DNA of 64,000 bases from an uncultured Verrucomicrobiota bacterium (GTDB lineage: Bacteria; Verrucomicrobiota; Kiritimatiellia; RFP12; UBA1067): the NCBI GenBank assembly GCA_947305775.1, contig CAMZEN010000007.1:61-64060 (forward strand), written 5' to 3'. Under the pieces are notes generated by a model. That model saw only the letters and a program-made list of their open reading frames with translations, did not search any database and was not told where the DNA came from. The stretch's first letter is position 1; each line of letters starts with the position of its first letter. Positions 308 through 14,572 of this stretch are shown here, piece by piece. The translations under genes and the position numbers were made by a program.

Positions 308-1372
308 ATGATCGCTTTACGGCGATACGGGAAAAATGATATACTATGTATCATTATGCAATTCGACGTTTCGTACAGAAGCAAGGATGGACAACTGGAA
401 ATGGTGCGCATCGAGGCGGAGTCTCGTCAGGCGCTTTTTCCTGAACTCGCCAAACGTGGCATTTCGGCGATTCGCATACAGGACGCTACCGGGAAAGGCA
501 AACCCACCAAAGCCCGTCTGTCCAAGTCTGCCGGACACGCGAGGTCTTCCTCGCTCATGCGCGGCTTTCTGGCCGGAGCAATTGTGGTAGTCGCCGCATT
601 CGGCATATGGTATATAATAATAGGATTAAGGGATAAGGCTCAACAAACGGACAACGGCACAGAGAAGCCCGCAAAGATTGCCGAGGTCACGCCAGCCATT
701 GTGGCCAAGCCGAAGGCCGAAGAGCCAGCGCCTGAGCCAACACCAACAAAGCCAGAGCCTCCTCCTTTCGTAAAACGCCCTGGAGCGTTGCAACTTCCGA
801 ACGGGACGGTGATCACCTTCCGCCCTCCGCCACCTGGACAGGAGAAGACCGTCTGGGTGCATGGGCGAAAATACATAGCAGATTCGGAAGGCAACTTCTA
901 CGATGCCTCGCCTGTTCCAACCTTCGACAACCGCTTTGAGAACACAATGGAAGCCATGAGCGCGGTTGGCGGAGGTGTTTTGCCCGCTGCCGCACTGTCG
1001 ATTCCAAAGGATGATATAGTCAAGTATCTCTCCAGCCCCATCGTCATCAATGACAATGACTCGGAGGATATAGTCGAGAAGAAGATTGCCACCGCCGAAA
1101 TGAAGGAACTCCTGAAGGACTATATCAAGGACGGCGGCAATTGGGAAGACTTCGTTATGGAACTCAGCAATATCAAACGCAACGAACGCATGCTGCAGTC
1201 TCAGGCGATATCCGAAATCGCCAAGATGCTACGCGAGGGCGACGAGGAAGGCGCCCAAATGTATCGAGCCAGAGTTGACGAGTTCATGAAGTCCAAAGGC
1301 TATCGCGGTCTGAAAGTCCCGGAAAAGTGGGGACTGGGCGAACTGCCCGTTTCCGACGATGGCAATGAATGA
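308..1372 (+). CDS. hypothetical membrane-anchored protein with Pro/Glu-rich linker
   Basis: Long ORF containing one hydrophobic segment (FLAGAIVVVAAFGIWYIIIGL) followed by a PKAEEPAPEPTPTKPEPPP linker and an acidic C-terminal domain. The start is uncertain; alternative ATGs lie near 353 and 556. No recognisable family. Confidence 0.45.
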   Translation: MIALRRYGKNDILCIIMQFDVSYRSKDGQLEMVRIEAESRQALFPELAKRGISAIRIQDATGKGKPTKARLSKSAGHARSSSLMRGFLAGAIVVVAAFGIWYIIIGLRDKAQQTDNGTEKPAKIAEVTPAIVAKPKAEEPAPEPTPTKPEPPPFVKRPGALQLPNGTVITFRPPPPGQEKTVWVHGRKYIADSEGNFYDASPVPTFDNRFENTMEAMSAVGGGVLPAAALSIPKDDIVKYLSSPIVINDNDSEDIVEKKIATAEMKELLKDYIKDGGNWEDFVMELSNIKRNERMLQSQAISEIAKMLREGDEEGAQMYRARVDEFMKSKGYRGLKVPEKWGLGELPVSDDGNE

Positions 1373-1420
1373 CGCGACGAGGTGCTTTTGAAACTCTATC
1401 AAACCATAGGAGAAAAGAAA

Positions 1421-2209
1421 ATGAAGAAACTGATATCTGCCCTTACAGTAGTCGCAATCAGCTTGGTGTTCGCTGCAGACAAGGCGCCGACACAAGAAGA
1501 AGTCAAGAACATGTCTCCCGAAGAGCGCAAGGCTCTGTTCGAGCAGCGCACGGGTGGCATGGTTCGCCACGAAGCCGAGGGGCCGGCGATTGTTGTCGTC
1601 GACGCCCGTGCCACACCCGGCAAAGCTCTTGCACACTTCGAGCGCGAGAACATCAAGGCATATGGCTCGACGCCTGGTCTTCCGGTAAAGACATACGCCG
1701 CTCCCGTACAAGGTGAACCGATTTCCGCCGCACAAGACATTCTTGCAAAGGAAAGCGGCGCGATGGCGATTGTTATCGTCAATGGCGGAGCAGCAACACC
1801 TGGATTAACCGTATGCCCCGAAGACCGCGTCGCGGCCATCAACGCCGACCGCTACGACAACAACGAGATTCTGCTTCTTAAAGAAATATGGCGCACGATA
1901 GGTTTTATCGGTGGCGTCGGCTTCTCGCAGTATAGCGCCGATCCTATGCAGGCTGTCTATTCCAAAGAAGACCTTGAGTCGATGCAGGGGACGGCACTTC
2001 TGCCGACTTCGCTCAATGCGCTTCGCACCTTCAACAAGCGCTTTGGAATCACCCCAGCGTATTCGCTTCCCTACATTGCCGCCGTCCGCAAGGGCTGGGC
2101 TCCAGCCCCTACGAACGACAACCAAAAGGCAATATGGGAGAAGTTCCAGGCTGAAAAAGAGCGCGGCCCGTCGAATCCAATCCTGATTCCACCGCCCAGC
2201 AAGAAGTAG
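1421..2209 (+). CDS. hypothetical secreted protein
   Basis: ATG is preceded by a GGAGAAAAG ribosome-binding site. N-terminal signal peptide MKKLISALTVVAISLVFAA. The ORF runs 263 codons to a stop at 2209. No family recognised. Confidence 0.55.
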   Translation: MKKLISALTVVAISLVFAADKAPTQEEVKNMSPEERKALFEQRTGGMVRHEAEGPAIVVVDARATPGKALAHFERENIKAYGSTPGLPVKTYAAPVQGEPISAAQDILAKESGAMAIVIVNGGAATPGLTVCPEDRVAAINADRYDNNEILLLKEIWRTIGFIGGVGFSQYSADPMQAVYSKEDLESMQGTALLPTSLNALRTFNKRFGITPAYSLPYIAAVRKGWAPAPTNDNQKAIWEKFQAEKERGPSNPILIPPPSKK

Positions 2210-2212
2210 TCC

Positions 2213-3046
2213 GTGGCGAAGTTCACATACGTTTACCGTTCCTCAGATGGCGTCCGCCACGAGGAACAGATGACAGCCGGCTCGCGGGACGAGGCGTTTG
2301 CCTTGCTCCGTGAGCGTGGCATTAAGGCCATCAAGGTAATCGCCGCCGACGGTTCGAAGGCAAACGGCGAGATGATCGGGGTCCGAAAGCGTTATGTCGC
2401 GCTTGTATCCATCGTTGCCGCCGCCGTTGCGTCCTGTATCGCCTACTGGGGTGGGACCCGCGTCGGCGCGAACAAGCCAACCGAGGTCGTCTTGACGACT
2501 GATAATGGCTCCGTGAAAGTAAAAGCGTTGATCGCCCAGCCCCTTGCCCGACAGGAAATCCCAGGCAGCAGGGCAAGGATTGACGACCTTCCAGCAACGC
2601 TTTTCAAACATCCAGCCGAGGCGTTTCTTGCGCGTTTCGCCGAACCTGGCCGACCATTGCCCGATGCTGCCGAGACGCCGTCAGACGCCGATTTTCGCGC
2701 CGCTATAGCCGAGCCTATATACTTCGCTTCTAATGAACTGACCGAGCACATAGACCTTAAGCGCATCGTTGCAGGCATCAAGCGCGAGATGGCGGCCTAT
2801 CTTGACGGTGGGGGCACTGTGGAGGCCTACATCGTAGAGCTCGTCAAACGGCAGAAAATGGAGATCGTCTATCGCGAGAACGCTGAAAAGCGTCTCGAGA
2901 CGTTGCTCGATTCCGAAAAGAGCACCGAGGATGTATATGCATATTGGCTCAAGGCGAACGCCCAGCTTCAGGCAATGGGCATATATCCGCTCGTTCTGCC
3001 CGATTCCCTCCGCAAATACCAATTGAACATGGATTTTGACGAATAG
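2213..3046 (+). CDS. hypothetical single-pass membrane protein
   Basis: GTG start immediately after the upstream stop. The N-terminus (FTYVYRSSDGVRHEEQMTAGSRDEAFALLRERGIKAIKV) resembles the N-terminal cytoplasmic module of T2SS/T4P GspF-like proteins. One transmembrane helix (VALVSIVAAAVASCIAYW). 277 aa. Confidence 0.45.
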   Translation: MAKFTYVYRSSDGVRHEEQMTAGSRDEAFALLRERGIKAIKVIAADGSKANGEMIGVRKRYVALVSIVAAAVASCIAYWGGTRVGANKPTEVVLTTDNGSVKVKALIAQPLARQEIPGSRARIDDLPATLFKHPAEAFLARFAEPGRPLPDAAETPSDADFRAAIAEPIYFASNELTEHIDLKRIVAGIKREMAAYLDGGGTVEAYIVELVKRQKMEIVYRENAEKRLETLLDSEKSTEDVYAYWLKANAQLQAMGIYPLVLPDSLRKYQLNMDFDE

Positions 3047-3100: not shown

Positions 3101-4048
3101 ATGGGGAGAATCATCCCGACTATTAAAATGGTGCTGGAGCACTATCCGAAATGTGCAGCCATTGAGCGCTTGCGCATGGAACGACCGAGCGAAAAAACGG
3201 TCTCGAACGTTACAGGTGCTCTTGTAAGGCTCTGCCGGCTTGGAGAAATCTCCTTGGACGAGCCTGTCGTCGTCTTCACCAGAAAACGTCTGGAACGTGT
3301 GTTCGACGGTGCAAGGCGCGACGGGCTCTCCCCCGTCACCATCTGGAGCTACATACTCTCGCTTCGGGCCATCTTCGCCAAATGGACGCGCCCGTATTAC
3401 GCAGACAAGAAGTGGACGGTTCCGGCGATTGAGCTACCCTCGTGCCGCCGTAAGGCTCCGCGCTATGTCCGCCCGGATTCAACTGTCCTCGCCAAGGTCA
3501 AGGAATGGTATGCATCCCTTGAAACTCGCCAAGACCCTCGCGAATGGGTGCTGGCAACGCTTATGCTGGAGTTCGCCATGCGAAACGGTGACGCAGAGGC
3601 TCTACGCTGGTCTGATTTTCGCAAGAAGGCCGGCACAACCATCCTCTGCTATACGCCGCACAAGACTCGACTATCATCGGGTCGCACAGTTGCCTGGCCC
3701 GTCCATCCAGACATCCTTGCACGGCTAGAGACATACCATGCTGCCGGCATCCCATACAACAAGCGCAGGGGTTGGTCAAAGAACGAAGACCGCGACTCCC
3801 GACTTGTTGTTCCCTGTGCCCGCGACGTCTTCGTGCGTCTCAACAAAGAACTGCGCGAGAAAAAGATATTCACCGGACACAAGGGCTGCTACGAACTCCG
3901 CAAGATTTGCATAGACCACATCTACCAGAAGTTCGGGGTAGAGGCGGCCTCTTCAATCTCCGGCGACGACATCCACACCGTCATGCACTATTACGCCGAT
4001 CCAAGCGCGGTCACGCAAGTCGGTGTCCGCGTCCTAGAACTTCTGTAG
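3101..4048 (+). CDS. tyrosine-type site-specific recombinase/integrase (phage integrase family)
   Basis: N-terminal SAM-like core-binding region. The conserved Arg box (AMRNGDAEALRWSDF) and a C-terminal H-x-x-LRK...H...Y region (TGHKGCYELRKICIDHIYQKFG ... ISGDDIHTVMHYY) are consistent with the R-K-H-R-H-Y catalytic signature. An RBS (AAAGGAGG) lies upstream. Confidence 0.55.
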   Translation: MGRIIPTIKMVLEHYPKCAAIERLRMERPSEKTVSNVTGALVRLCRLGEISLDEPVVVFTRKRLERVFDGARRDGLSPVTIWSYILSLRAIFAKWTRPYYADKKWTVPAIELPSCRRKAPRYVRPDSTVLAKVKEWYASLETRQDPREWVLATLMLEFAMRNGDAEALRWSDFRKKAGTTILCYTPHKTRLSSGRTVAWPVHPDILARLETYHAAGIPYNKRRGWSKNEDRDSRLVVPCARDVFVRLNKELREKKIFTGHKGCYELRKICIDHIYQKFGVEAASSISGDDIHTVMHYYADPSAVTQVGVRVLELL

Positions 4049-4131
4049 TGAAGAGCAAACCGCCCTTCTCTCATCACGATTTCTTTGTTCTGCCGGACAG
4101 GGTGAAAAGCCCTACAAAAAGGAACAAGACA

Positions 4132-4839
4132 ATGAAGAAACTCATGATTGCAGCAGCGGTTATGGCCGCAGGCGTCGCGATGGCAGATGGAATCGTCAGC
4201 TCGGATGTAGTCGGCTACCAGACTAAGACGGTGACGACAGGGTTCTCACTTCAGACCCCTACGTTCACTGATGTCGGCGTGGATGGCTATGACCTTGCAA
4301 ACTTCAAGTTTGTCGATGGTGCTGGTGATGGAACTGAGACGATTCAGGTCCTTGACGCAAACGGTGTCAACAATGAAACTTGGACTTGGCTCAACGGAAA
4401 CGTGGGCATGGCTGACGGTTGGTATGATTTCATTACCTGGGATCCGATTGTAGCCACTATCGTCCCTGGTGATGGCTATCTCATGAACGTTTCGGCCGAC
4501 GTTGATATGCAGTTCGCCGGTCAGGTCAAAAATGGTAAGACCACAGTGACGATTCCGGCAGGGTTCTTCATCGTCGGTAACTGCACACCTTCGCCTGTTA
4601 GCATTCAGGATCTAAAGCTCGTTAATGCTGCTGGTGACGGAACCGAAACAATTCAGGTGCTTGATGAAAATGGTGTCAACAATGAGACCTGGACATGGCT
4701 CAACGGTAATGTTGGAATGGCTGACGGTTGGTACGATTTCATTACTTGGGAACCAATCGTTGCGACCATTGCGCCCGGCGAGGCTTTTCTCTTGAATGTG
4801 TCGGCTGATGTCGATATGGAGGTGCCTTCAGTCCTCTAA
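4132..4839 (+). CDS. secreted tandem-repeat protein, paralog A1 (signal peptide plus two ~95-aa internal repeats)
   Basis: ATG at 4132 with RBS AAAGGAAC. Signal peptide MKKLMIAAAVMAAGVAMA. An internal duplication (…GAGDGTETIQVLD(A/E)NGVNNETWTWLNGNVGMADGWYDFITW…VSADVDM…) occurs twice. The conserved 42-nt leader begins at TTCTGCCGGACAG. Confidence 0.7.
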   Translation: MKKLMIAAAVMAAGVAMADGIVSSDVVGYQTKTVTTGFSLQTPTFTDVGVDGYDLANFKFVDGAGDGTETIQVLDANGVNNETWTWLNGNVGMADGWYDFITWDPIVATIVPGDGYLMNVSADVDMQFAGQVKNGKTTVTIPAGFFIVGNCTPSPVSIQDLKLVNAAGDGTETIQVLDENGVNNETWTWLNGNVGMADGWYDFITWEPIVATIAPGEAFLLNVSADVDMEVPSVL

Positions 4840-4893
4840 AGGATTTTGGTGTGCGGCATAGGGTCGCATGCTTATAAAAGGAAAACAATCAAA

Positions 4894-5436
4894 ATGAAGA
4901 AACTAATGATATTGGTTGCGGCGGCATCCCTCGCAGGGCTTGTCAATGCTGCAACCTGCAACTGGTCAGGGTCTGCTGTCGCTCTCAAGTCTGCGACAGA
5001 TGATCCAACTAAGTATACGGTCTATCTGCTTGATGCTACGGTGACCGACGCTTCGACGATGGCGGGGTACCTCACCAATGGTGACACCTCCTACCTCGCC
5101 GCCGCTACGGTCACAACTACAGCCGGCATCGCAGTTGGCTCGCCAGCTACGGCTGCTCGTTGGGGCAAGAATGGCTTCGGCAGCTATACGGCTGGTGATG
5201 CTTACACGTATTACACAGTAATCTTCAATGATGCGGTCGATAGCGCCGACTACTTCATGATCACGGCTGAGAAGGCCGCAACCGTGCCTTCGTCTGGTTC
5301 GCTTGCAATGTCGTTCGGCTCGCAGGCCAGCAACTCGTGGGTTGCGATGGGATCTTCCCCCGTCCCGGAGCCGACTTCGGGTCTCCTCATGCTCCTCGGC
5401 ATGGCTGGCTTGGCGCTCCGCCGTCGCCGCGCGTAA
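4894..5436 (+). CDS. PEP-CTERM sorting domain-containing protein, paralog B1
   Basis: RBS AAAAGGAAAAC then ATG. Signal peptide MKKLMILVAAASLAGLVNA. C-terminal VPEPTSGLLMLLGMAGLALRRRRA is a canonical PEP-CTERM sorting signal: PEP motif, transmembrane helix, Arg cluster. Confidence 0.75.
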   Translation: MKKLMILVAAASLAGLVNAATCNWSGSAVALKSATDDPTKYTVYLLDATVTDASTMAGYLTNGDTSYLAAATVTTTAGIAVGSPATAARWGKNGFGSYTAGDAYTYYTVIFNDAVDSADYFMITAEKAATVPSSGSLAMSFGSQASNSWVAMGSSPVPEPTSGLLMLLGMAGLALRRRRA

Positions 5437-5455
5437 TCTGATTCAATCAGTTCGC

Positions 5456-5490
5456 AACAAGAAGCCGCACTCATCCGAGCGCGGCTTTCT
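5456..5490 (+). terminator. GC-rich hairpin (REP-like) plus T-run downstream of B1
   Basis: GAAGCCGCACTCatccGAGCGCGGCTTTCTTATTG. The inverted repeat AAGCCGC…GCGGCTT is followed by a T-rich tract. The same hairpin family recurs at 6816-6847 and 10062-10096. Confidence 0.5.
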
Positions 5491-5548
5491 TATTGATTCG
5501 TGAGGTGGCTTGTGGCATTGGCGGACGACATGGTATAATACGGTTGGA

Positions 5549-6805
5549 ATGCGTTTAGAGTACTCGAGAACGGGAAAGCAGTTCTTTTTCGTCACGCTTG
5601 GCGTAGCCGAAAGACGATCTGTGCTTTCGCAACTTGGCGACGAAAAGAGCCGCCCAGAGCTGACCGAACTTGGCGAGCTGGTGAAGGCTGCGCTAAGAGC
5701 GGTGCACCGTGTTTGGTCGGCGGCGACTGTAAGCAACTACGTGATAATGCCCGACCATATCCATTATCTTCTTATAGTCGATTACGACCGAGACAAGTCG
5801 ATAAGCCCGCTATTTATCGCTCACCGTATCGCTGACGCGGTTGAAATGGCCGTCGCCAGAGGATTGGAACGAACGGGGGCTTGCGCCCCCGCACCCCCAG
5901 CGATGCCACCATCGCTAGCGACTCGCGCCCCAGCACTCCAAGCGATGCCACTACCATTGGCGACTCGCGCCCCAGCGCCTCCAACCGAGGGCGAGGCATT
6001 GAGAAAGCGACTGGCCGAGGAGCGCGTAGCAAAGATGGTCGCGCTCTTTAAAGTCGCCATAAAGGCCGCCAATCGCCGCGCAGCCGCTGGCTTGCTGAAG
6101 GTCGATAGTGGGCTTTGCTTCGGCGAGGCGGCTGGCTATAGCGCGGCGGCAGCTGGCGAAACGGCTGGGGGTGCGGGGGCGCGAGCCCCCGTCCGTTCCG
6201 TCGTCTTCGCCCGCGATTGCTACATTGAGCTTTCTTTTGACTCGCGCCAGCTAAAGGCCATTCGCAACTACATAAAGCTCAACCCAGCGCGCGCCCTTTG
6301 GAAGCTTCGCAACCCCGACCTCTTTCTACGCCATCGCGCAATAAAGGCGCATCGCCTCGCGCCGCTTGCGCCATTGAGCTTTGACGGCATTGGCGCCCTC
6401 ACCCTGCTAGGCTCGCCTTTTTTGTTTCATGTGCGGCTCACGCTAAAGAAGACAGTAGCCGAGCATGCCGTAGCCATAGAGGAGGTCGTCGAGAATGCGC
6501 GACGCGGAATGGTGCCGGTATCGGGCTTCATCTCGCCAGGCGAAAAAGAGGCGCTTAAGCGTCTCAAGGCCGAGCCTCGCGCACGCTTCGTGAAGCTTTT
6601 GCCTTATGCGTTGCCGTCGCGCTACGACCCCTCTGCCGAAGACAGCCGCGAAATCGCCGCAGGGAGAATGCTCATTCTCTCGCCATTTAGCGACACGCCG
6701 GCCATCTCGTCGGTTGAGATGAAGCGCGAGCCATCGGCAGCCCACGCCTTCCGTCGTAACTGCCTAGCCATGAACGACATCGCCGCAAAGCTTTGCAGTG
6801 AATAA
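5549..6805 (+). CDS. IS200-like / REP-associated tyrosine transposase (RAYT-like, Transposase_17 HUH Y1) with in-frame low-complexity insertion and C-terminal extension
   Basis: N-terminal region matches the RAYT pattern (…SRTGKQFFFVTLGVAERRSVL…ELV…YVIMPDHIHYLLIV, the HUH motif). A downstream catalytic-Tyr helix (KAIRNYIKLNPARALW) is present. 5876-6190 is a 315-bp in-frame segment bounded by 24-bp inverted repeats and containing a 42-bp tandem duplication. The ORF could begin at 5510; 5549 gives an RAYT-like N-terminus. A TATAAT box lies 8 nt upstream. Confidence 0.65.
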   Translation: MRLEYSRTGKQFFFVTLGVAERRSVLSQLGDEKSRPELTELGELVKAALRAVHRVWSAATVSNYVIMPDHIHYLLIVDYDRDKSISPLFIAHRIADAVEMAVARGLERTGACAPAPPAMPPSLATRAPALQAMPLPLATRAPAPPTEGEALRKRLAEERVAKMVALFKVAIKAANRRAAAGLLKVDSGLCFGEAAGYSAAAAGETAGGAGARAPVRSVVFARDCYIELSFDSRQLKAIRNYIKLNPARALWKLRNPDLFLRHRAIKAHRLAPLAPLSFDGIGALTLLGSPFLFHVRLTLKKTVAEHAVAIEEVVENARRGMVPVSGFISPGEKEALKRLKAEPRARFVKLLPYALPSRYDPSAEDSREIAAGRMLILSPFSDTPAISSVEMKREPSAAHAFRRNCLAMNDIAAKLCSE

Positions 6806-6815
6806 ACAATGAAGC

Positions 6816-6847
6816 CGCACTCGAAAGAGTGCGGCTTCTTTTGCGTT
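6816..6847. terminator. bidirectional hairpin terminator / REP-like hairpin between convergent genes
   Basis: GAAGCCGCACTCgaaaGAGTGCGGCTTCTTTT lies between the stop of the plus-strand transposase-like gene (6805) and the stop of minus-strand B2 (6862). U-runs are present on both strands. Confidence 0.55.
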
Positions 6848-6861
6848 CTGACTGAATCAGA

Positions 6862-7404
6862 TTACGCGCGGCGACGACGAAGCGCCAAGCCAGCCATGCC
6901 GAGGAGCATGAGGAGGCCAGAGGTCGGCTCTGGGACGGGGGAAGACCCCATCGCAACCCACGAGTTGCTGGCCTGCGAGCCAAACGCCATCTGAAGCGAG
7001 CCCGACGAAGGCACGGTTGCGGCCTTCTCAGCCGTGATCATGAAGTAATCCGCACTATCGATCGCATCATTGAATACGACAGTATAATACGTGTAGGCAT
7101 CACCGGCGGTATAGCTGCCGAAGCCATTGTAGCCCCAGCGAGCAGCCGTAACTGGCGAGCCAACTGCGATGCCGGCTGTAGTTGTAACCGTAGCGGCAGC
7201 GAGGTAGGAGGTATCACCCTTAGCAAGGTAACCCGCCATCGTCGAAGCGTCGGTCACAGAAGCATCAAGCAGAACTACTGCGTACTTCGTTGGATCATCT
7301 GTGGCAGACTGGAGCGCGACAGCAGCTCCAGACCAGTTGCAGGTTGCAGCATTGACAAGCCCTGCGAGGGATGCCGCCGCAACAAATATCATTAGTTTCT
7401 TCAT
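6862..7404 (-). CDS. PEP-CTERM sorting domain-containing protein, paralog B2
   Basis: MKKLMIFVAAASLAGLVNAATCNWSG… ends with VPEPTSGLLMLLGMAGLALRRRRA. About 85-90% identical to B1, in inverted orientation. Confidence 0.75.
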   Translation of the reverse strand: MKKLMIFVAAASLAGLVNAATCNWSGAAVALQSATDDPTKYAVVLLDASVTDASTMAGYLAKGDTSYLAAATVTTTAGIAVGSPVTAARWGYNGFGSYTAGDAYTYYTVVFNDAIDSADYFMITAEKAATVPSSGSLQMAFGSQASNSWVAMGSSPVPEPTSGLLMLLGMAGLALRRRRA

Positions 7405-7456
7405 TTTGTTTATTTTCCTTTCCAGCATGCGACCCTATGCCGCACACCAAAATCCT

Positions 7457-8163
7457 TTAGAGGACCGAAGGCACCTCCATATCGACATCAGCCGACACAT
7501 TCATAAGGAACGCTTCGCCGGGAGCAATGGTAGCATCGATTGATTCCCAAGTGACGGAATCGTACCAGCCGTCAGCCATGCCAACGTTTCCGTTGAGCCA
7601 CGCCCAAGTTACATTGTTAACACCATTTTCATCAAGCACCTGAATAACTTCGGTGCCGTCACCTGCAGCATTAACGAGCTTCAGGCTCTGGATGCTAATA
7701 GGCATAGGCGTGCAGTTACCGGCAACGAAGAACCCCGTTGGAACCGTCACTGTGGTCTTGCCATTTTTGACCTGACCGGCGAACTGCATATCAACATCAG
7801 CAGAGACATTCATGAGATAGCCATCACCAGGAACGATAGTGGCAGCAATAGGCTCCCAAGAGACGGAATCATACCAACCGTCAGGCATGCCCACGTTTCC
7901 GTTGAGCCACGCCCATGTCTCATTGTTGACGCCGTTCGCATCGAGAACCTGAATAACTTCAGTTCCGTCGCCGGCACCATTGACAAACTTGAAGTTTGCA
8001 AGGTCATAGCCATCCACGCCGACATCAGTGAACGTAGGGGTCTGAAGTGAGAACCCTGTCGTCACCGTCTTAGTCTGGTAGCCGACTACATCCGAGCTGA
8101 CGATTCCATCTGCCATCGCGACGCCTGCGGCCATAACCGCTGCTGCAATCATGAGTTTCTTCA
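7457..8163 (-). CDS. secreted tandem-repeat protein, paralog A2
   Basis: Signal peptide MKKLMIAAAVMAAGVAMADGIVSSDVVGYQTKT. Same two-repeat architecture as A1. The conserved leader (reverse complement TTCTGCCGGACAGGGTGAAAATCCCTACAAAAAGGAACAAGACA) sits at 8164-8207. Confidence 0.7.
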
Positions 8164-8419
8164 TTGTCTTGTTCCTTTTTGTAGGGATTTTCACCCTGTC
8201 CGGCAGAAGTAAGAAATTCAGCAGTCTCCCTTGGGTCGCAATTAGGGGTTCGCTCTCAGGCGAACGACTTGGTTGCGAATGTCCGTTCAACTCTTGACTT
8301 TCCAACTCCTTTCGGTGTTTTTGTTTTCCCCCGTGTAGCACCGCGCCCACTGTCAGGATTTGCCGCTCTAGCCTTCACAAGCCATAACCTTGGTCTGATG
8401 GGCCTTTACGACAATGGGA

Positions 8420-8428
8420 ATTATACCA
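8420..8428 (-). promoter_or_regulatory. extended -10 box TGGTATAAT (minus strand) inside a conserved ~45-nt motif
   Basis: The reverse complement of 8417-8431 is GGGAATTATACCAAA→TTTGGTATAATTCCC. The adjacent GCGCAAGGGGGTATTTT block is shared with positions 172-190. Confidence 0.35.
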
Positions 8429-8674
8429 AATTCTCGAGCGGCAGCGCAAGGGGGTATTTTGAGAAATATTGCAGACCTCATAAAGAGCGGCACAGAGACA
8501 TAGCAGAAAGTTATATTCACTTGTATTTTTGCTTTGTTAGACTTCATCGGCCACTATGTGCGATTGATACAGGGTGTCGTGCGGCTTTGCACATTGCGCA
8601 CGCCGACAAATTAATGAGTGTATTTAGCCATTCTGCCGGACAGGGTGAAAAGCCCTACAAAAAGGAACAAGACA

Positions 8675-9397
8675 ATGAAGAAACTCATGATTGCAGCGGC
8701 GGTTATGGCCGCCGGAGTCGCAATGGCAGATGGAATCGTAAGCTCGGATGTCGTCGGCTATCAGACAAAGACAACCGTAAGCGGGTTCAACTTCTTTACT
8801 CCTACGTTCAAGCAGGTAGGGGCTCCTGGAAAAACATTCAACATCAATGATATCGTTCTCGATCCAACAACAGCAACTGGTTACGGCGATAACATTCAGA
8901 TTCTTGACGAAGGTGGTTCTACAGTAGCCTCATATTACTGGATTCCAGCAGGTGATATTGTTGAAACTGCTTGCTGGACTGAAGATTTTGGGACGGCGGC
9001 GGATGTTGATTTTGAATCAGGTATGAGTTTCATCGTCGATACCTCAGCACCTGTTGCAGTTACTGTTGCTGGTCAAGTACTCACGGGAGATTTGACTGTT
9101 ACAGCAAACGCTGGATTCAATTTCATTGGCAATGCGTCACCAACAGCCATTGACATTCAGAAAATCACTCTTGATCCTACAACTGCAACTGGATATGGCG
9201 ACAACATTCAGATTCTTGATGACGGTGGAGCCACAATTGCATCGTATTATTGGATTCCTGCAGGAGACATAACAGAAAGCGCCTGCAGGACTGAGGATTT
9301 TGGTACAGCCGCTACTTATTCAATTGAGTCTGGATTAGGGTTCATTGTTGATGTCGCAAACGATAATGTTACTGTGACGATCCCCATGGCTCTCTAA
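8675..9397 (+). CDS. secreted tandem-repeat protein, paralog A3 (divergent repeat domain)
   Basis: Leader and first ~35 codons are about 90% identical at DNA level to A1/A2. The sequence then diverges into a different two-fold repeat (…LDPTTATGYGDNIQILD(E/D)GG…YYWIPAGDI…EDFGTAA…). Confidence 0.7.
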   Translation: MKKLMIAAAVMAAGVAMADGIVSSDVVGYQTKTTVSGFNFFTPTFKQVGAPGKTFNINDIVLDPTTATGYGDNIQILDEGGSTVASYYWIPAGDIVETACWTEDFGTAADVDFESGMSFIVDTSAPVAVTVAGQVLTGDLTVTANAGFNFIGNASPTAIDIQKITLDPTTATGYGDNIQILDDGGATIASYYWIPAGDITESACRTEDFGTAATYSIESGLGFIVDVANDNVTVTIPMAL

Positions 9398-9451
9398 ACG
9401 ATTTTGTCCGGCAATGGGTCGGATGAATACAAAGAAAAGGAAAATAACAAA

Positions 9452-10039
9452 ATGAAAAAGATAATGCTTGCGCTCAGTATAGCGCTTACAGCAGGGGTGA
9501 TGCAGGCTGCGTCACTTAACTGGGTTGTAGCAGGAGTCACCCTGCCAGAAACAACAACACCCGCAAATGGCGTTGCTGTCTATATGTTCCTTACGGCTGC
9601 TGGTGGAAACACCTTAAGCTTCGTTCCTACTGCATCACTTACAACCGTTTCTGAGGTTGAGAGTGCTATTACAGGGGGTACATTTACCGGTGCGGGTGCA
9701 TACGTTAGTTCAACGCTGAATTCGTCAGGTGCCACTACAGCGGCAACAGGCGTCAGCACTTCTTTTGGAGCTGGCGATTCGCTCACGGCATTTGCAGTCA
9801 TTTTTGACAATGCAGATGTATCGCTAGCGACAAGCTATATGATCGCTCAAAGCGCGACTGGCGATACTGAACTTTCTCAATCGTGGACATCATCAACAGG
9901 CGCGAAAGTTCTTAACTGGGGCAACCAGACAACCAACGGCACGACCTGGACTTCAATGGCCGCCGTCCCAGAGCCGACGAGCGGATTGCTCATGCTCCTC
10001 GGCATGGCTGGCTTGGCGCTTCGTCGTCGCCGCGCGTAA
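9452..10039 (+). CDS. PEP-CTERM sorting domain-containing protein, paralog B3 (divergent mature domain)
   Basis: RBS AAAAGGAAAA. Signal peptide MKKIMLALSIALTAGVMQA. The Thr/Ser/Gly-rich middle is unlike B1/B2. The final ~75 nt encoding VPEPTSGLLMLLGMAGLALRRRRA are nearly identical to B1/B2. Confidence 0.75.
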   Translation: MKKIMLALSIALTAGVMQAASLNWVVAGVTLPETTTPANGVAVYMFLTAAGGNTLSFVPTASLTTVSEVESAITGGTFTGAGAYVSSTLNSSGATTAATGVSTSFGAGDSLTAFAVIFDNADVSLATSYMIAQSATGDTELSQSWTSSTGAKVLNWGNQTTNGTTWTSMAAVPEPTSGLLMLLGMAGLALRRRRA

Positions 10040-10061
10040 CCGTCGATTAAGCCCGACAACG

Positions 10062-10096
10062 AAAGAAGCCGCACTCCTTCGAGTGCGGCTTTTATT
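10062..10096 (+). terminator. REP-like hairpin terminator downstream of B3
   Basis: GAAGCCGCACTCcttcGAGTGCGGCTTTTATTTATTG. Perfect 11-bp stem followed by a T-run. Confidence 0.55.
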
Positions 10097-10109
10097 TATT
10101 GACCAATGA

Positions 10110-10275
10110 CTGTTTGTGGTATTGACGGGTGACATGATATAATACAAATGCAATGCGTTTAGAATACTCGAAAACCAGGAAGCGCATAACCCGTCGGCTG
10201 CACACGCATTTCGCCGCAATTGCCTCGCAATGAACGACATCGCCACGAAGCTTTGCGGTGAATATAATAAAGCCG
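10110..10275 (+). pseudogene. internally deleted remnant of the IS200/RAYT-like gene (5' ~60 bp joined to 3' ~90 bp)
   Basis: 10121-10190 aligns to 5520-5580 (…GATATAATAC…ATGCGTTTAGAATACTCGAAAAC…). 10195-10270 aligns to 6735-6805 (…CATTTCGCCGCAATTGCCTCGCAATGAACGACATCGCCACGAAGCTTTGCGGTGAATA…). Confidence 0.5.
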
Positions 10276-10709: not shown

Positions 10710-12203
10710 ATGCGACTCCTATCCCAACGGCTTCTTCTGATCCTCCTTCTATGCCTTGCCGCGCCGGCGTTCGCGGCGAAGCCAAAGGCCATCGTGCTCT
10801 TCTATGCCGACGATCTCGGTTATGGCGACACATCCGCATATGGCCAGGCGAAGGTGCCGACGCCAAACCTCGAGCGCCTCGCGAGCGAAGGATGCCGCTT
10901 CTGCGACGCGCATTCGGCGACGCCGATCTGCACGCCATCGCGCTTTTCGCTGCTTACCGGACGCTACGCCTTTCGCAGACCTGGAACCCGCATACTCGAC
11001 GGCGATGCAAAGCTGATCCTGCCGGTGGAGGGCTCGGGCGAAGAGAATGTTACGCTGCCCGTCCTCATGAAACGCGCCGGATACCGCACCGCCGCAATCG
11101 GCAAGTGGCACCTCGGGCTCGGCAAGGGCGACGCCCCGATCGACTGGAACGGCACCATAAAGCCCTCGCCGCGCGAGGTCGGTTTCGACAAGTCGTTCGT
11201 GATGGCCGCGACCGCAGACCGCGTCCCCTGCGTATTCGTCGAGGACGGCGCCGTGGTCGGACTTGATCCGAATGATCCGATAGAGGTTTCGTATGACAAC
11301 GCGGAGCGCAAGTGGCCGGACGAGCTCACTGCGCATTCCAACCCCGAGCTTCTTAAGGAATGGGGGCGCCCTTCCGACCGCCAGCACGACAAGACGATAA
11401 TCGACGGCATCTCACGCATCGGCCACATGCGTGGAGGCAAGTCGGCCATATGGAAGGACCAGGATATCGCCGACCGCATAACCGCAGAAGCCGAGGCGTT
11501 CATAAAGGAATCATCAGGAAAGCCCATATTCCTCTACTTCGCGACAAACGACATACATGTGCCGCGCGACCCGTCGCCGCGCTTCAGAGGCGTCAGCAAG
11601 CTCGGCATACGCGGCGACGCGACAGTGCAGATGGACGATTGCCTAGGACGGATCCGCAAGGCGCTTGCGGAAAACGGATACAACGACACCCTCTTCATAT
11701 TCACGAGCGACAACGGTCCCAAGGTGTCCGACGGCTACGAGGATGGCGCACGCGACGACTGGGCGGACGAAAACCCCGCCGCGCCCTTCCGTGGCGGCAA
11801 GTATACGGTCTACGAAGGCGGAACCAGAATGCCCATGATCGTCGCGTGGCCCGGACGCGTCAAGCCGGGGACGGAGAACCATGCATTGATCTCACAAACG
11901 GACTTCGCGCGTTCGCTTGCCAAGATAGTGGATGTCGAGGTTCCGGCAGGAGCCTGCAGCGACAGCCAGGAACTCTCATATGTCCTTCTAGGCGACAGCG
12001 AGAAAGGCAGGGAAAGCCTCGTTGAGCAACCGGCGTGGGGCGCATGGGGCTACAGGAAAGGCGCATGGAAGCTGATAGACTCCGCCGAGCCTCAACTTTA
12101 CTTCCTCGACGACGACCCTGGTGAGCGAAACAACCTCGCCAAAGAGCAGCCCGCAAAGGTGGCCGAACTGCGCGCCGAACTCCGGGCGCTGACCGCCCAA
12201 TAG
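10710..12203 (+). CDS. arylsulfatase (formylglycine-dependent sulfatase family)
   Basis: Signal peptide is present. The sulfatase signature (…LFYADDLGYGDTSAYG…ATPICTPSRFSLLTGRY…) contains the C-x-P-x-R formylglycine motif. 497 aa. Confidence 0.9.
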   Translation: MRLLSQRLLLILLLCLAAPAFAAKPKAIVLFYADDLGYGDTSAYGQAKVPTPNLERLASEGCRFCDAHSATPICTPSRFSLLTGRYAFRRPGTRILDGDAKLILPVEGSGEENVTLPVLMKRAGYRTAAIGKWHLGLGKGDAPIDWNGTIKPSPREVGFDKSFVMAATADRVPCVFVEDGAVVGLDPNDPIEVSYDNAERKWPDELTAHSNPELLKEWGRPSDRQHDKTIIDGISRIGHMRGGKSAIWKDQDIADRITAEAEAFIKESSGKPIFLYFATNDIHVPRDPSPRFRGVSKLGIRGDATVQMDDCLGRIRKALAENGYNDTLFIFTSDNGPKVSDGYEDGARDDWADENPAAPFRGGKYTVYEGGTRMPMIVAWPGRVKPGTENHALISQTDFARSLAKIVDVEVPAGACSDSQELSYVLLGDSEKGRESLVEQPAWGAWGYRKGAWKLIDSAEPQLYFLDDDPGERNNLAKEQPAKVAELRAELRALTAQ

Positions 12204-14504: not shown

Positions 14505-14572
14505 TTGTCTTCTTTCCCTTTCGAAAATTGAGTATATATTATACCGTTTTCTGCGCCAATGCGCAAGGGGGG

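Follow-up and report, generated by a model that had tools for sequence, protein, structure and literature searches.

The locus described here is located in the window, a 64,000-nucleotide (nt) stretch of contig CAMZEN010000007.1 (assembly GCA_947305775.1) from an uncultured bacterium of the Kiritimatiellia (phylum Verrucomicrobiota). It contains three gene pairs, to be referred to as cassettes, each encoding a secreted protein (A) and a PEP-CTERM protein (B), together with the gene of a divergent recombinase (Int) and a spacer that carries a promoter-like site. The locus is probably an active multigene DNA-inversion switch in the chromosome of a bacterium from gut or rumen, shufflon-like and of the type found at the vpma and vsa loci of mycoplasmas. 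For the gene family to which it belongs, the assignment as an inversion switch can be made with high confidence. Coordinates, and the copy counts of the leader and the hairpin, refer to the whole 64-kb stretch.

The three cassettes have the orientations plus, minus and plus, as an earlier, sequence-only reading of this DNA had described. That reading left out the recombinase gene (3101-4048) and did not remark on the promoter in the spacer (8209-8630), and it is the recombinase gene and the promoter-bearing spacer that explain the layout. The features of the locus are as follows.

3101-4048, plus strand: Int, a divergent tyrosine recombinase and candidate invertase; its stop codon is 39 nt before the A1 leader.
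4088-4229, plus strand: R1, the proposed recombination target, which is the 5′ block at the start of cassette 1 and comprises the 44-nt leader, the ATG, the signal peptide and the first mature codons.
4132-4839, plus strand: A1, a secreted protein with two tandem β-sandwich/jelly-roll domains.
4894-5436, plus strand: B1, a PEP-CTERM protein (PF07589, TIGR02595), the putative exosortase-sorted anchor partner of A1.
5461-5488, plus strand: terminator-type hairpin after B1.
5549-6805, plus strand: X, a RAYT/IS200-like gene with an HUH motif, between the convergent B1 and B2.
6811-6838, no strand: bidirectional terminator hairpin common to X and B2.
6862-7404, minus strand: B2, a PEP-CTERM protein with about 90% nt identity to B1.
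7457-8164, minus strand: A2, in the cassette facing the promoter as sequenced, predicted to be ON.
8067-8208, minus strand: R2, the corresponding 5′ block in cassette 2, in the orientation opposite to that of R1 and R3.
8209-8630, minus strand: expression-site spacer (422 bp), with the promoter and a 5′ untranslated region (UTR) of about 200 nt leading into the A2 leader, flanked by the inverted R2 and R3 and thus a putative invertible promoter segment.
8631-8772, plus strand: R3, the 5′ block of cassette 3.
8675-9397, plus strand: A3, a divergent A allele.
9452-10039, plus strand: B3, a divergent PEP-CTERM allele with a sorting tail identical to that of B1.
10064-10093, plus strand: terminator hairpin after B3.
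10114-10264, plus strand: X remnant, internally deleted, with the promoter, the first codons and the last ~25 codons.

In the proposed switch, the promoter (near 8449, minus strand) would direct transcription through the UTR and the leader into A2 and B2 and up to the terminator, and this would be the present ON state. Recombination between R2 and R3 would flip the 422-bp spacer, so that A3 and B3 are transcribed instead. If R1 recombined with R2, the 4.1-kb A1-B1-X-B2-A2 segment would be inverted and A1 and B1 would come to the promoter. The likely catalyst of these inversions in the window genome is Int, and the crossover would be located in the 5′ block. The outcome would be a population expressing one of three antigenically different A/B pairs, with A and B acting jointly at the cell surface.

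The 5′ ends of the three cassettes are nearly identical. The 44-nt leader is present in three copies in the window with at most one mismatch, at 4088-4131 (plus strand), 8165-8208 (minus strand) and 8631-8674 (plus strand), and the number of matches expected by chance is zero. With the following 98 nt of signal-peptide and N-terminal codons, it forms a common 5′ block of 142 nt that is 94% identical across the cassettes. All three have a complete leader, ATG and signal peptide, and all are intact and translatable. Cassettes 1 and 2 constitute a 1.38-kb inverted repeat of 90% identity, with a mosaic profile: the identity is 98-100% over the first ~210 nt (4088-4300) and 71-98% beyond. Cassette 3 reaches 92-100% identity to the others in just two places, at 4088-4215 and around 5370-5420, and its body is 28-68% identical at the DNA level. 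Positions -44 to +22 match exactly between A1 and A3, including the entire non-coding leader, despite bodies that are unalignable as DNA.

At the protein level, the bodies of cassette 3 are clear, if divergent, homologues of those of cassette 1. A1 and A3 are related with a BLASTP E value of 7e-29 (44% identity over a 200-residue alignment, 37% overall by MAFFT), and B1 and B3 with an E value of 3e-14 (37% identity). Each A gene also holds an internal tandem duplication of ~309-312 nt. The sequence-only reading had recognized this tandem repeat, the similarity of cassettes 1 and 2 and the common leader, the last of which it gave as 42 nt long although the string that it quoted has 44. Its description of A3 and B3 as unrelated in the middle does not agree with the protein comparisons.

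The promoter in the spacer has the form TTGCGC-N18-TGGTATAAT (about 8449 to 8415, minus strand) and points at A2. It was identified by homology and with a relaxed regular expression. A generic sigma-70 scan overlooked it, because TTGCGC agrees with TTGACA at only three of the six positions. Its upstream element, AAAATACCCCCTTGCGC, aligns with the promoter before a related A gene in L082 (a JGI contig), which is followed by a UTR of about 250 nt and the start region AAAAAGGAACAAGACAATGAAGAAACTCATGATTGC, as in the window. This contig, from a different species, was the one match in a metagenome scan with the leader and the start region, and it was used for the promoter comparison only. The expression TTGNNN-N16-19-TANNNT matched nowhere upstream of A1, and its match in front of A3 is poor. 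By consensus and homology, one promoter is predicted to serve all three cassettes. Among known RNA elements, only a flavin mononucleotide (FMN) element matched in the 5′ UTR, at 25.8 bits against a threshold of 66.2, and this match is taken as chance. Two other TTGCGC-N17-19-TATAAT promoters are found at 14566 and 51474 (both minus strand), one of them upstream of a release-factor gene (PCRF/RF-1 domain), and this organism may prefer TTGCGC as its -35 hexamer.

The repeats could also have another origin, a static cluster of paralogues produced by local duplication, its ends kept alike by purifying selection and occasional gene conversion, with no programmed switching. The tail of the B genes does encode an identical, functionally constrained sorting signal, all three cassettes are translatable, and no orientation variant of the window genome was found. 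Such a cluster does not explain, however, why a non-coding leader is completely identical between A1 and A3 when the bodies behind it have diverged so far, nor why three cassettes have a single promoter. Moreover, inverted blocks around a promoter spacer with a recombinase gene alongside are the layout of loci with documented rearrangement. We regard a static cluster as quite unlikely.

Rearrangement of the cassettes is observed directly in related Kiritimatiellae. The arrays of L001 and L002, from two samples, are both 5506 nt long, and their left flanks are 99.9% identical over 10.4 kb. The order of the cassettes is a+ b+ c- d- in L001 and a+ d+ b+ c- in L002. The bodies are permuted and the upstream contexts are fixed, with all junctions located within a 25-nt core, GCGCGGCAGTTACTTTTGGCTTAGA. 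Two nested inversions between oppositely oriented cores account for the difference. Misassembly is an unlikely source of it, because a 25-nt repeat is far below the k-mer size of the assembler (k141). L003 also differs from L001 in the orientation comparison (L001 vs L002/L003).

The same body can be found in an expressed and in a silent position. The a-type body is fused to the 5′ end of the expression site (MKTLMIAASAVLC joined to AAVTFG...) in L001-L003 (P0012, P0009), whereas P0014-P0016 and L094-L096 have it in a silent slot (MVG joined to AAVTFG...). For the b-type body, the position is silent in L001 and L002 (P0013) and is the expression site in L094.

The layout of L064, a metagenome-assembled genome from the human gut, is that of the window: int, A B, B A, promoter spacer, A B, B A. 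The A gene that faces the spacer promoter is the only one with a start codon (ATG) and with the N-terminal half of its signal peptide, and the other three A genes begin abruptly at the core GCGGCGCAGTACAGGCCGACGG. L093 (an ENA contig), which carries the nearest relative of A1 (83% nt identity), has a 5′-truncated cassette as well, with similarity that begins at window position 4174. Directly upstream of this truncated cassette are four tandem repeats of 22-23 nt (AAGTCTACCGCGCCAGACTTCC; L093 1-110).

The intragenomic repeat has a left boundary that is conserved across seven species: it coincides with the same codons of the signal peptide and shows a GCGSSGCAGT-type motif. All the crossovers mapped in the relatives are at the 5′ block. 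The core shared in these genomes is only 25-60 nt long, yet the permutation of the cassettes is precise and conservative. The proposal of the sequence-only reading that cassette-type recombination varies surface proteins is therefore borne out by the rearranged alleles of related genomes; its treatment of both cassette ends as equal targets is not, as the crossovers are all at the 5′ end.

The 3′ boundary of the cassettes also shows variation. In the species represented by P0071 (L083-L086), strains differ in the B/A cassette that follows a 40-nt repeat in the terminator region (L083 17459-17498), and this repeat has an inverted copy at 476-515. These differences hint that cassettes are exchanged or replaced at the 3′ boundary as well in this species. 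Multi-contig comparisons for P0071 and P0058 revealed no clean inversion. What they showed was either cassette content that differed between strains, with breakpoints at the terminator repeat after B, or neighbouring genes that were not the same, and the strain differences of both were left out of the evidence for inversion.

Int is predicted from its structural model to be a tyrosine recombinase of a very divergent clade. At the family level, it matches PHROG 1 integrase with an E value of 3.8e-13, and its match to Pfam Phage_integrase (PF00589) is below the cut-off (16.2 bits vs 27.1, E value 0.0096). A profile of the Int family gave no match to Protein Data Bank (PDB) sequences at an E value of 1 or lower. 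In the AlphaFold2 (AF2) model (pLDDT 80.6), an N-terminal core-binding helical domain is followed by a C-terminal catalytic domain. The top 50 matches to the PDB by Foldseek are all tyrosine recombinases, each with a probability of 1.00, and include λ Int (7e-6), XerA, Cre, XerH, IntI and Tn1549 Int. As candidates for the catalytic R-K-H-R-H/W-Y residues, R161 (in AMRNGD), K188 (in HKT), R267 (in YELR) and Y297/Y298 do not vary among 44 homologues. The spacing of the motifs suggests that Tyr264 occupies the first His position and Asp289 the second His/Trp position; pLDDT is below 50 in the region of the nucleophile.

At least 734 homologues of Int were found, and they are from Kiritimatiellae of guts and rumens wherever the source names the organism. 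The best 120 of them are mostly on contigs of 1-5 kb, though in clusters with many members, which may fit assembly breaks at a heterogeneous, repeat-rich invertible locus.

The recombinase gene is recurrently linked to A genes at their 5′ ends. Species-representative genomes, when scanned, gave 73 Int loci, and in 40 of these int has 1.5 kb or more of sequence on either side. Among these 40 species-level loci, an A gene is present in 24, and its 5′ end is within 600 nt of int in 15 (about 40%). Considering all the Int loci with such an adjacency, the neighbouring A gene always faces int with its 5′ end (18 adjacencies in 17 loci). In L065, two copies of the A 5′ core in inverted orientation (9872-9934 and 10932-10993) are located on either side of int, an arrangement that places the recombinase gene inside a potentially invertible segment.

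Several observations weigh against the switch, or against Int as its enzyme. Exact look-ups of the Int and A2 proteins and the metagenome scan found no second assembly of the window's species, and A2 (P0001) is on record from a single 69-kb contig. The promoter call is based on consensus and homology, and A1 follows int without a terminator, so that read-through could occur. The closest homologue of Int (P0072, in L004/L005; 93% amino acid identity) has no A/B array next to it. It is from a different species, with about 83% nt identity, and an AAA_14/DUF4143 gene follows int there in place of A and B. In contrast to L001, L064 and L072, no cassette in the window is 5′-truncated, and none is therefore structurally silent. 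At the cross-species core, A3 differs from A1 and A2 by four bases (GCCGCAGGCGTCGCG vs GCCGCCGGAGTCGCA).

Some of these points would also fit RecA-dependent homologous recombination, with the same architecture and the same outcome and with Int unrelated or serving other loci. The example for such a system is the sap locus of Campylobacter fetus. There, a single promoter segment is located between opposed cassettes with conserved 5′ ends, and simple and nested inversions choose the homologue that is expressed. The process is RecA-dependent and uses ~600 bp of 5′ homology, the cassettes have single genes, and there is no dedicated recombinase beside the array. The promoter segment in the window is likewise positioned between oppositely oriented cassettes with common 5′ ends. 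The complete 5′ ends of the window cassettes are another likeness, as the sapA homologues reportedly keep theirs (Dworkin and Blaser). The repeats in the window are long enough for RecA, with 142 nt at 94% identity, 1.38 kb at 90% and, for the pair of cassettes 1 and 2, a nearly exact stretch of ~210 nt, and for this reason Int is no more than a candidate for the enzyme. The imperfect core of A3 and the absence of A/B genes beside the closest homologue of Int point in the same direction. The window differs from sap in its two-gene cassettes and its neighbouring recombinase gene. On the other hand, the cores of 25-60 nt in the relatives are short for RecA and typical of site-specific recombination, and Int is found recurrently, in 17 species-level loci, exactly at the 5′ ends of A genes. 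With both sides considered, a RecA-dependent system is unlikely, and site-specific inversion with Int as the candidate enzyme is preferred.

The 3′ ends of the cassettes are also shared. B1, B2 and B3 have in common a PEP-CTERM tail of about 80 nt, of which a 32-nt stretch is exact in all three, and the tail is followed by a hairpin. The sorting signal that the tail encodes (PEP motif, hydrophobic helix and basic tail) is VPEPTSGLLMLLGMAGLALRRRRA. B1 and B3 score above the cut-offs of both PF07589 (24.6 and 26.5 bits vs 20.7) and TIGR02595 (26.7 and 26.5 bits vs 16). The B proteins are presumably sorted by an exosortase and anchor or partner A. No exosortase was seen in the part of the 64-kb window that was scanned. 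The GC-rich hairpin, GAAGCCGCACTC-N4-GAGTGCGGCTTC, is present in three copies in the 64 kb, all of them at cassette 3′ ends, and the hairpin after each cassette scores as an intrinsic terminator in the scan. It is predicted from these features to be the cassette terminator. As to the earlier claims, the common tail and the PEP-CTERM assignment hold, and the term REP-like for the hairpin is not appropriate. A dispersed repeat of the REP (repetitive extragenic palindromic)/RAYT type, which would be multi-copy and intergenic, was ruled out because the hairpin is confined to the cassette ends and resembles a terminator in the scan.

X, between B1 and B2, has a weak match to NCBIfam REP_Tyr_transpos (E value 8e-6, below the cut-off). 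It contains the HUH ('HIH') and YxxxNP ('YIKLNPARA') motifs, and it has its own extended -10 promoter at 5510-5541. There is no X between the convergent B genes of the relatives, where the gap is only ~70-140 nt. X is a passenger of the invertible segment and not a component of the switch.

The X remnant on the 3′ side of B3 keeps the first ~12 and the last ~25 codons. It shows that the unit originally duplicated was A-B-X. The coding region of X also holds a 36-nt inverted repeat (5866-5901 and 6164-6199, 94% complementary) that encloses a low-complexity insert of 262 nt, which includes a 42-nt tandem repeat at 5880-5963. Inversion of this insert in silico keeps the downstream frame and introduces one stop codon. 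The insert may represent an inverton within the gene, or an element that was inserted there.

It may also be asked whether the repeats are REP/RAYT-type or mobile-element ends, with X or Int moving the cassettes as the cargo of an island. The HUH and YxxxNP motifs of X, the hairpins on both of its flanks and the resemblance of Int to phage integrases at the family level are what such an element would offer. In comparison, the hairpin is terminator-like and is limited to three cassette ends, X is missing at the equivalent position in the relatives, and no relative of Int is encoded in any phage record (no tblastn match in 50,697 records). The genes around the region are housekeeping genes, and neither a tRNA nor direct repeats of the att type were seen in its surroundings. 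Mobile-element ends are thus a very improbable explanation of the repeats. A phage origin was ruled out, as Int has no match in the phage records and there are no PHROG matches for the A, B, X and 354/275/277 genes.

The last three of these genes, at 308-3046 in the window, encode proteins of 354, 275 and 277 amino acids without Pfam matches; the 277-residue type carries a T2SSF_N tag in precomputed data. Across Kiritimatiellae, these three genes are found repeatedly beside A/B and int, in many cases in an operon arranged A-B-354-275-277, and they also occur in convergent inverted pairs (L016, L042, L046 and L058). Their order relative to int varies between species. A second copy of the expression-site promoter, AAAATACCCCCTTGCGC-N18-TATACT, is found at 146-200 on the minus strand, with an upstream element identical to that at 8449, and reads leftwards off the edge of the window. 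A further A/B expression site is probably located just beyond this edge. If it is real, the 354-275-277-int block would be positioned between two cassette 5′ ends.

A broader arrangement can be proposed tentatively, and we consider it possible but doubtful. A and B would be the variable subunits of an exosortase-dependent surface structure of gut Kiritimatiellae that has so far gone unrecognised, with A as a novel double β-sandwich subunit and B as its anchor. The 354/275/277 proteins would assemble or export this structure. Through the promoter at 146-200, the switch would operate at two levels, with the 354-275-277-int block invertible. This would allow combinatorial expression from two expression sites, and the recombinase gene would be inside its own invertible segment.

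The layout of the window is closest to the vpma locus of Mycoplasma agalactiae and the vsp locus of M. bovis. Those loci have several surface-protein genes, each with a start codon and signal sequence, and a single promoter (PMC2268961). Identical recombination sites are located in the 5′ UTR of every gene (-1 to -72), and terminators follow the genes (PMC2268961). Inversions swap the gene at the promoter, a tyrosine recombinase (Xer1/Mbr) adjoins the locus, and Xer1 is genetically required (PMC2268961). The 5′ block in the window similarly begins at -44, with a complete leader, ATG and signal peptide in each cassette. There are clear differences, however. The window cassettes are two-gene units of a secreted A and a PEP-CTERM B, whereas the vpma and vsp products are lipoproteins. 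The host is a diderm gut bacterium of the PVC (Planctomycetes-Verrucomicrobia-Chlamydiae) group. Int belongs to a separate, very divergent clade, without a PDB sequence match and below the Pfam cut-off.

The relatives with truncated cassettes are more similar to the vsa locus of M. pulmonis, where silent genes start at a short vrs site at which site-specific inversion takes place. L001, L064 and L072 likewise have one expression site with the promoter, the ATG and the first signal-peptide codons, and their silent genes are 5′-truncated and start at a short site in the signal-peptide codons. The inversions at vsa are mediated by HvsR, a tyrosine recombinase, according to work cited in PMC2268961. 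The window differs from vsa in its untruncated cassettes, and there is no sequence homology of sites or cargo.

In the SusC/SusD-type shufflons of Bacteroides, which include two-gene SusC/D pairs, and in the R64 shufflon (Rci), a tyrosine recombinase places alternative bodies behind a fixed promoter and 5′ end. Their cargo, sites and recombinase clade are all unlike those in the window. In Akkermansia muciniphila, invertible promoters are enriched beside PEP-CTERM genes (PMC11892184, which cites Jiang et al. 2019 on Akkermansia invertons). This is also inversion-based phase variation of PEP-CTERM surface proteins in a gut bacterium of the PVC group. In comparison, the Akkermansia elements are small ON/OFF promoters with short inverted repeats, one per gene, and the window has a multi-cassette array in which alternative alleles would be exchanged at one expression site. 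The sequence-only reading had suggested that such a family was new for PEP-CTERM proteins, which is too broad in view of the Akkermansia invertons (PMC11892184) and the close mechanistic parallels with vpma and vsa (PMC2268961). Literature searches yielded no paper on phase variation in Kiritimatiellae and none connecting PEP-CTERM proteins with shufflons. What is new is the recombinase clade, the cargo of paired genes with a PEP-CTERM product, and the phylum; the mechanism belongs to a known type.

Kiritimatiellae are abundant, essentially uncultured members of rumen and gut communities, and we know of no information on how they present or vary their surface. The window locus and its relatives point to programmed antigenic or phase variation across the phylum. 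They would extend multigene inversion of the mycoplasma type to a diderm PVC lineage and to exosortase substrates. The 5′ core offers a concrete marker for inverton callers, and the A and B proteins are nominated as dominant exposed antigens, or as determinants of phage or host interaction, of the Kiritimatiellae.

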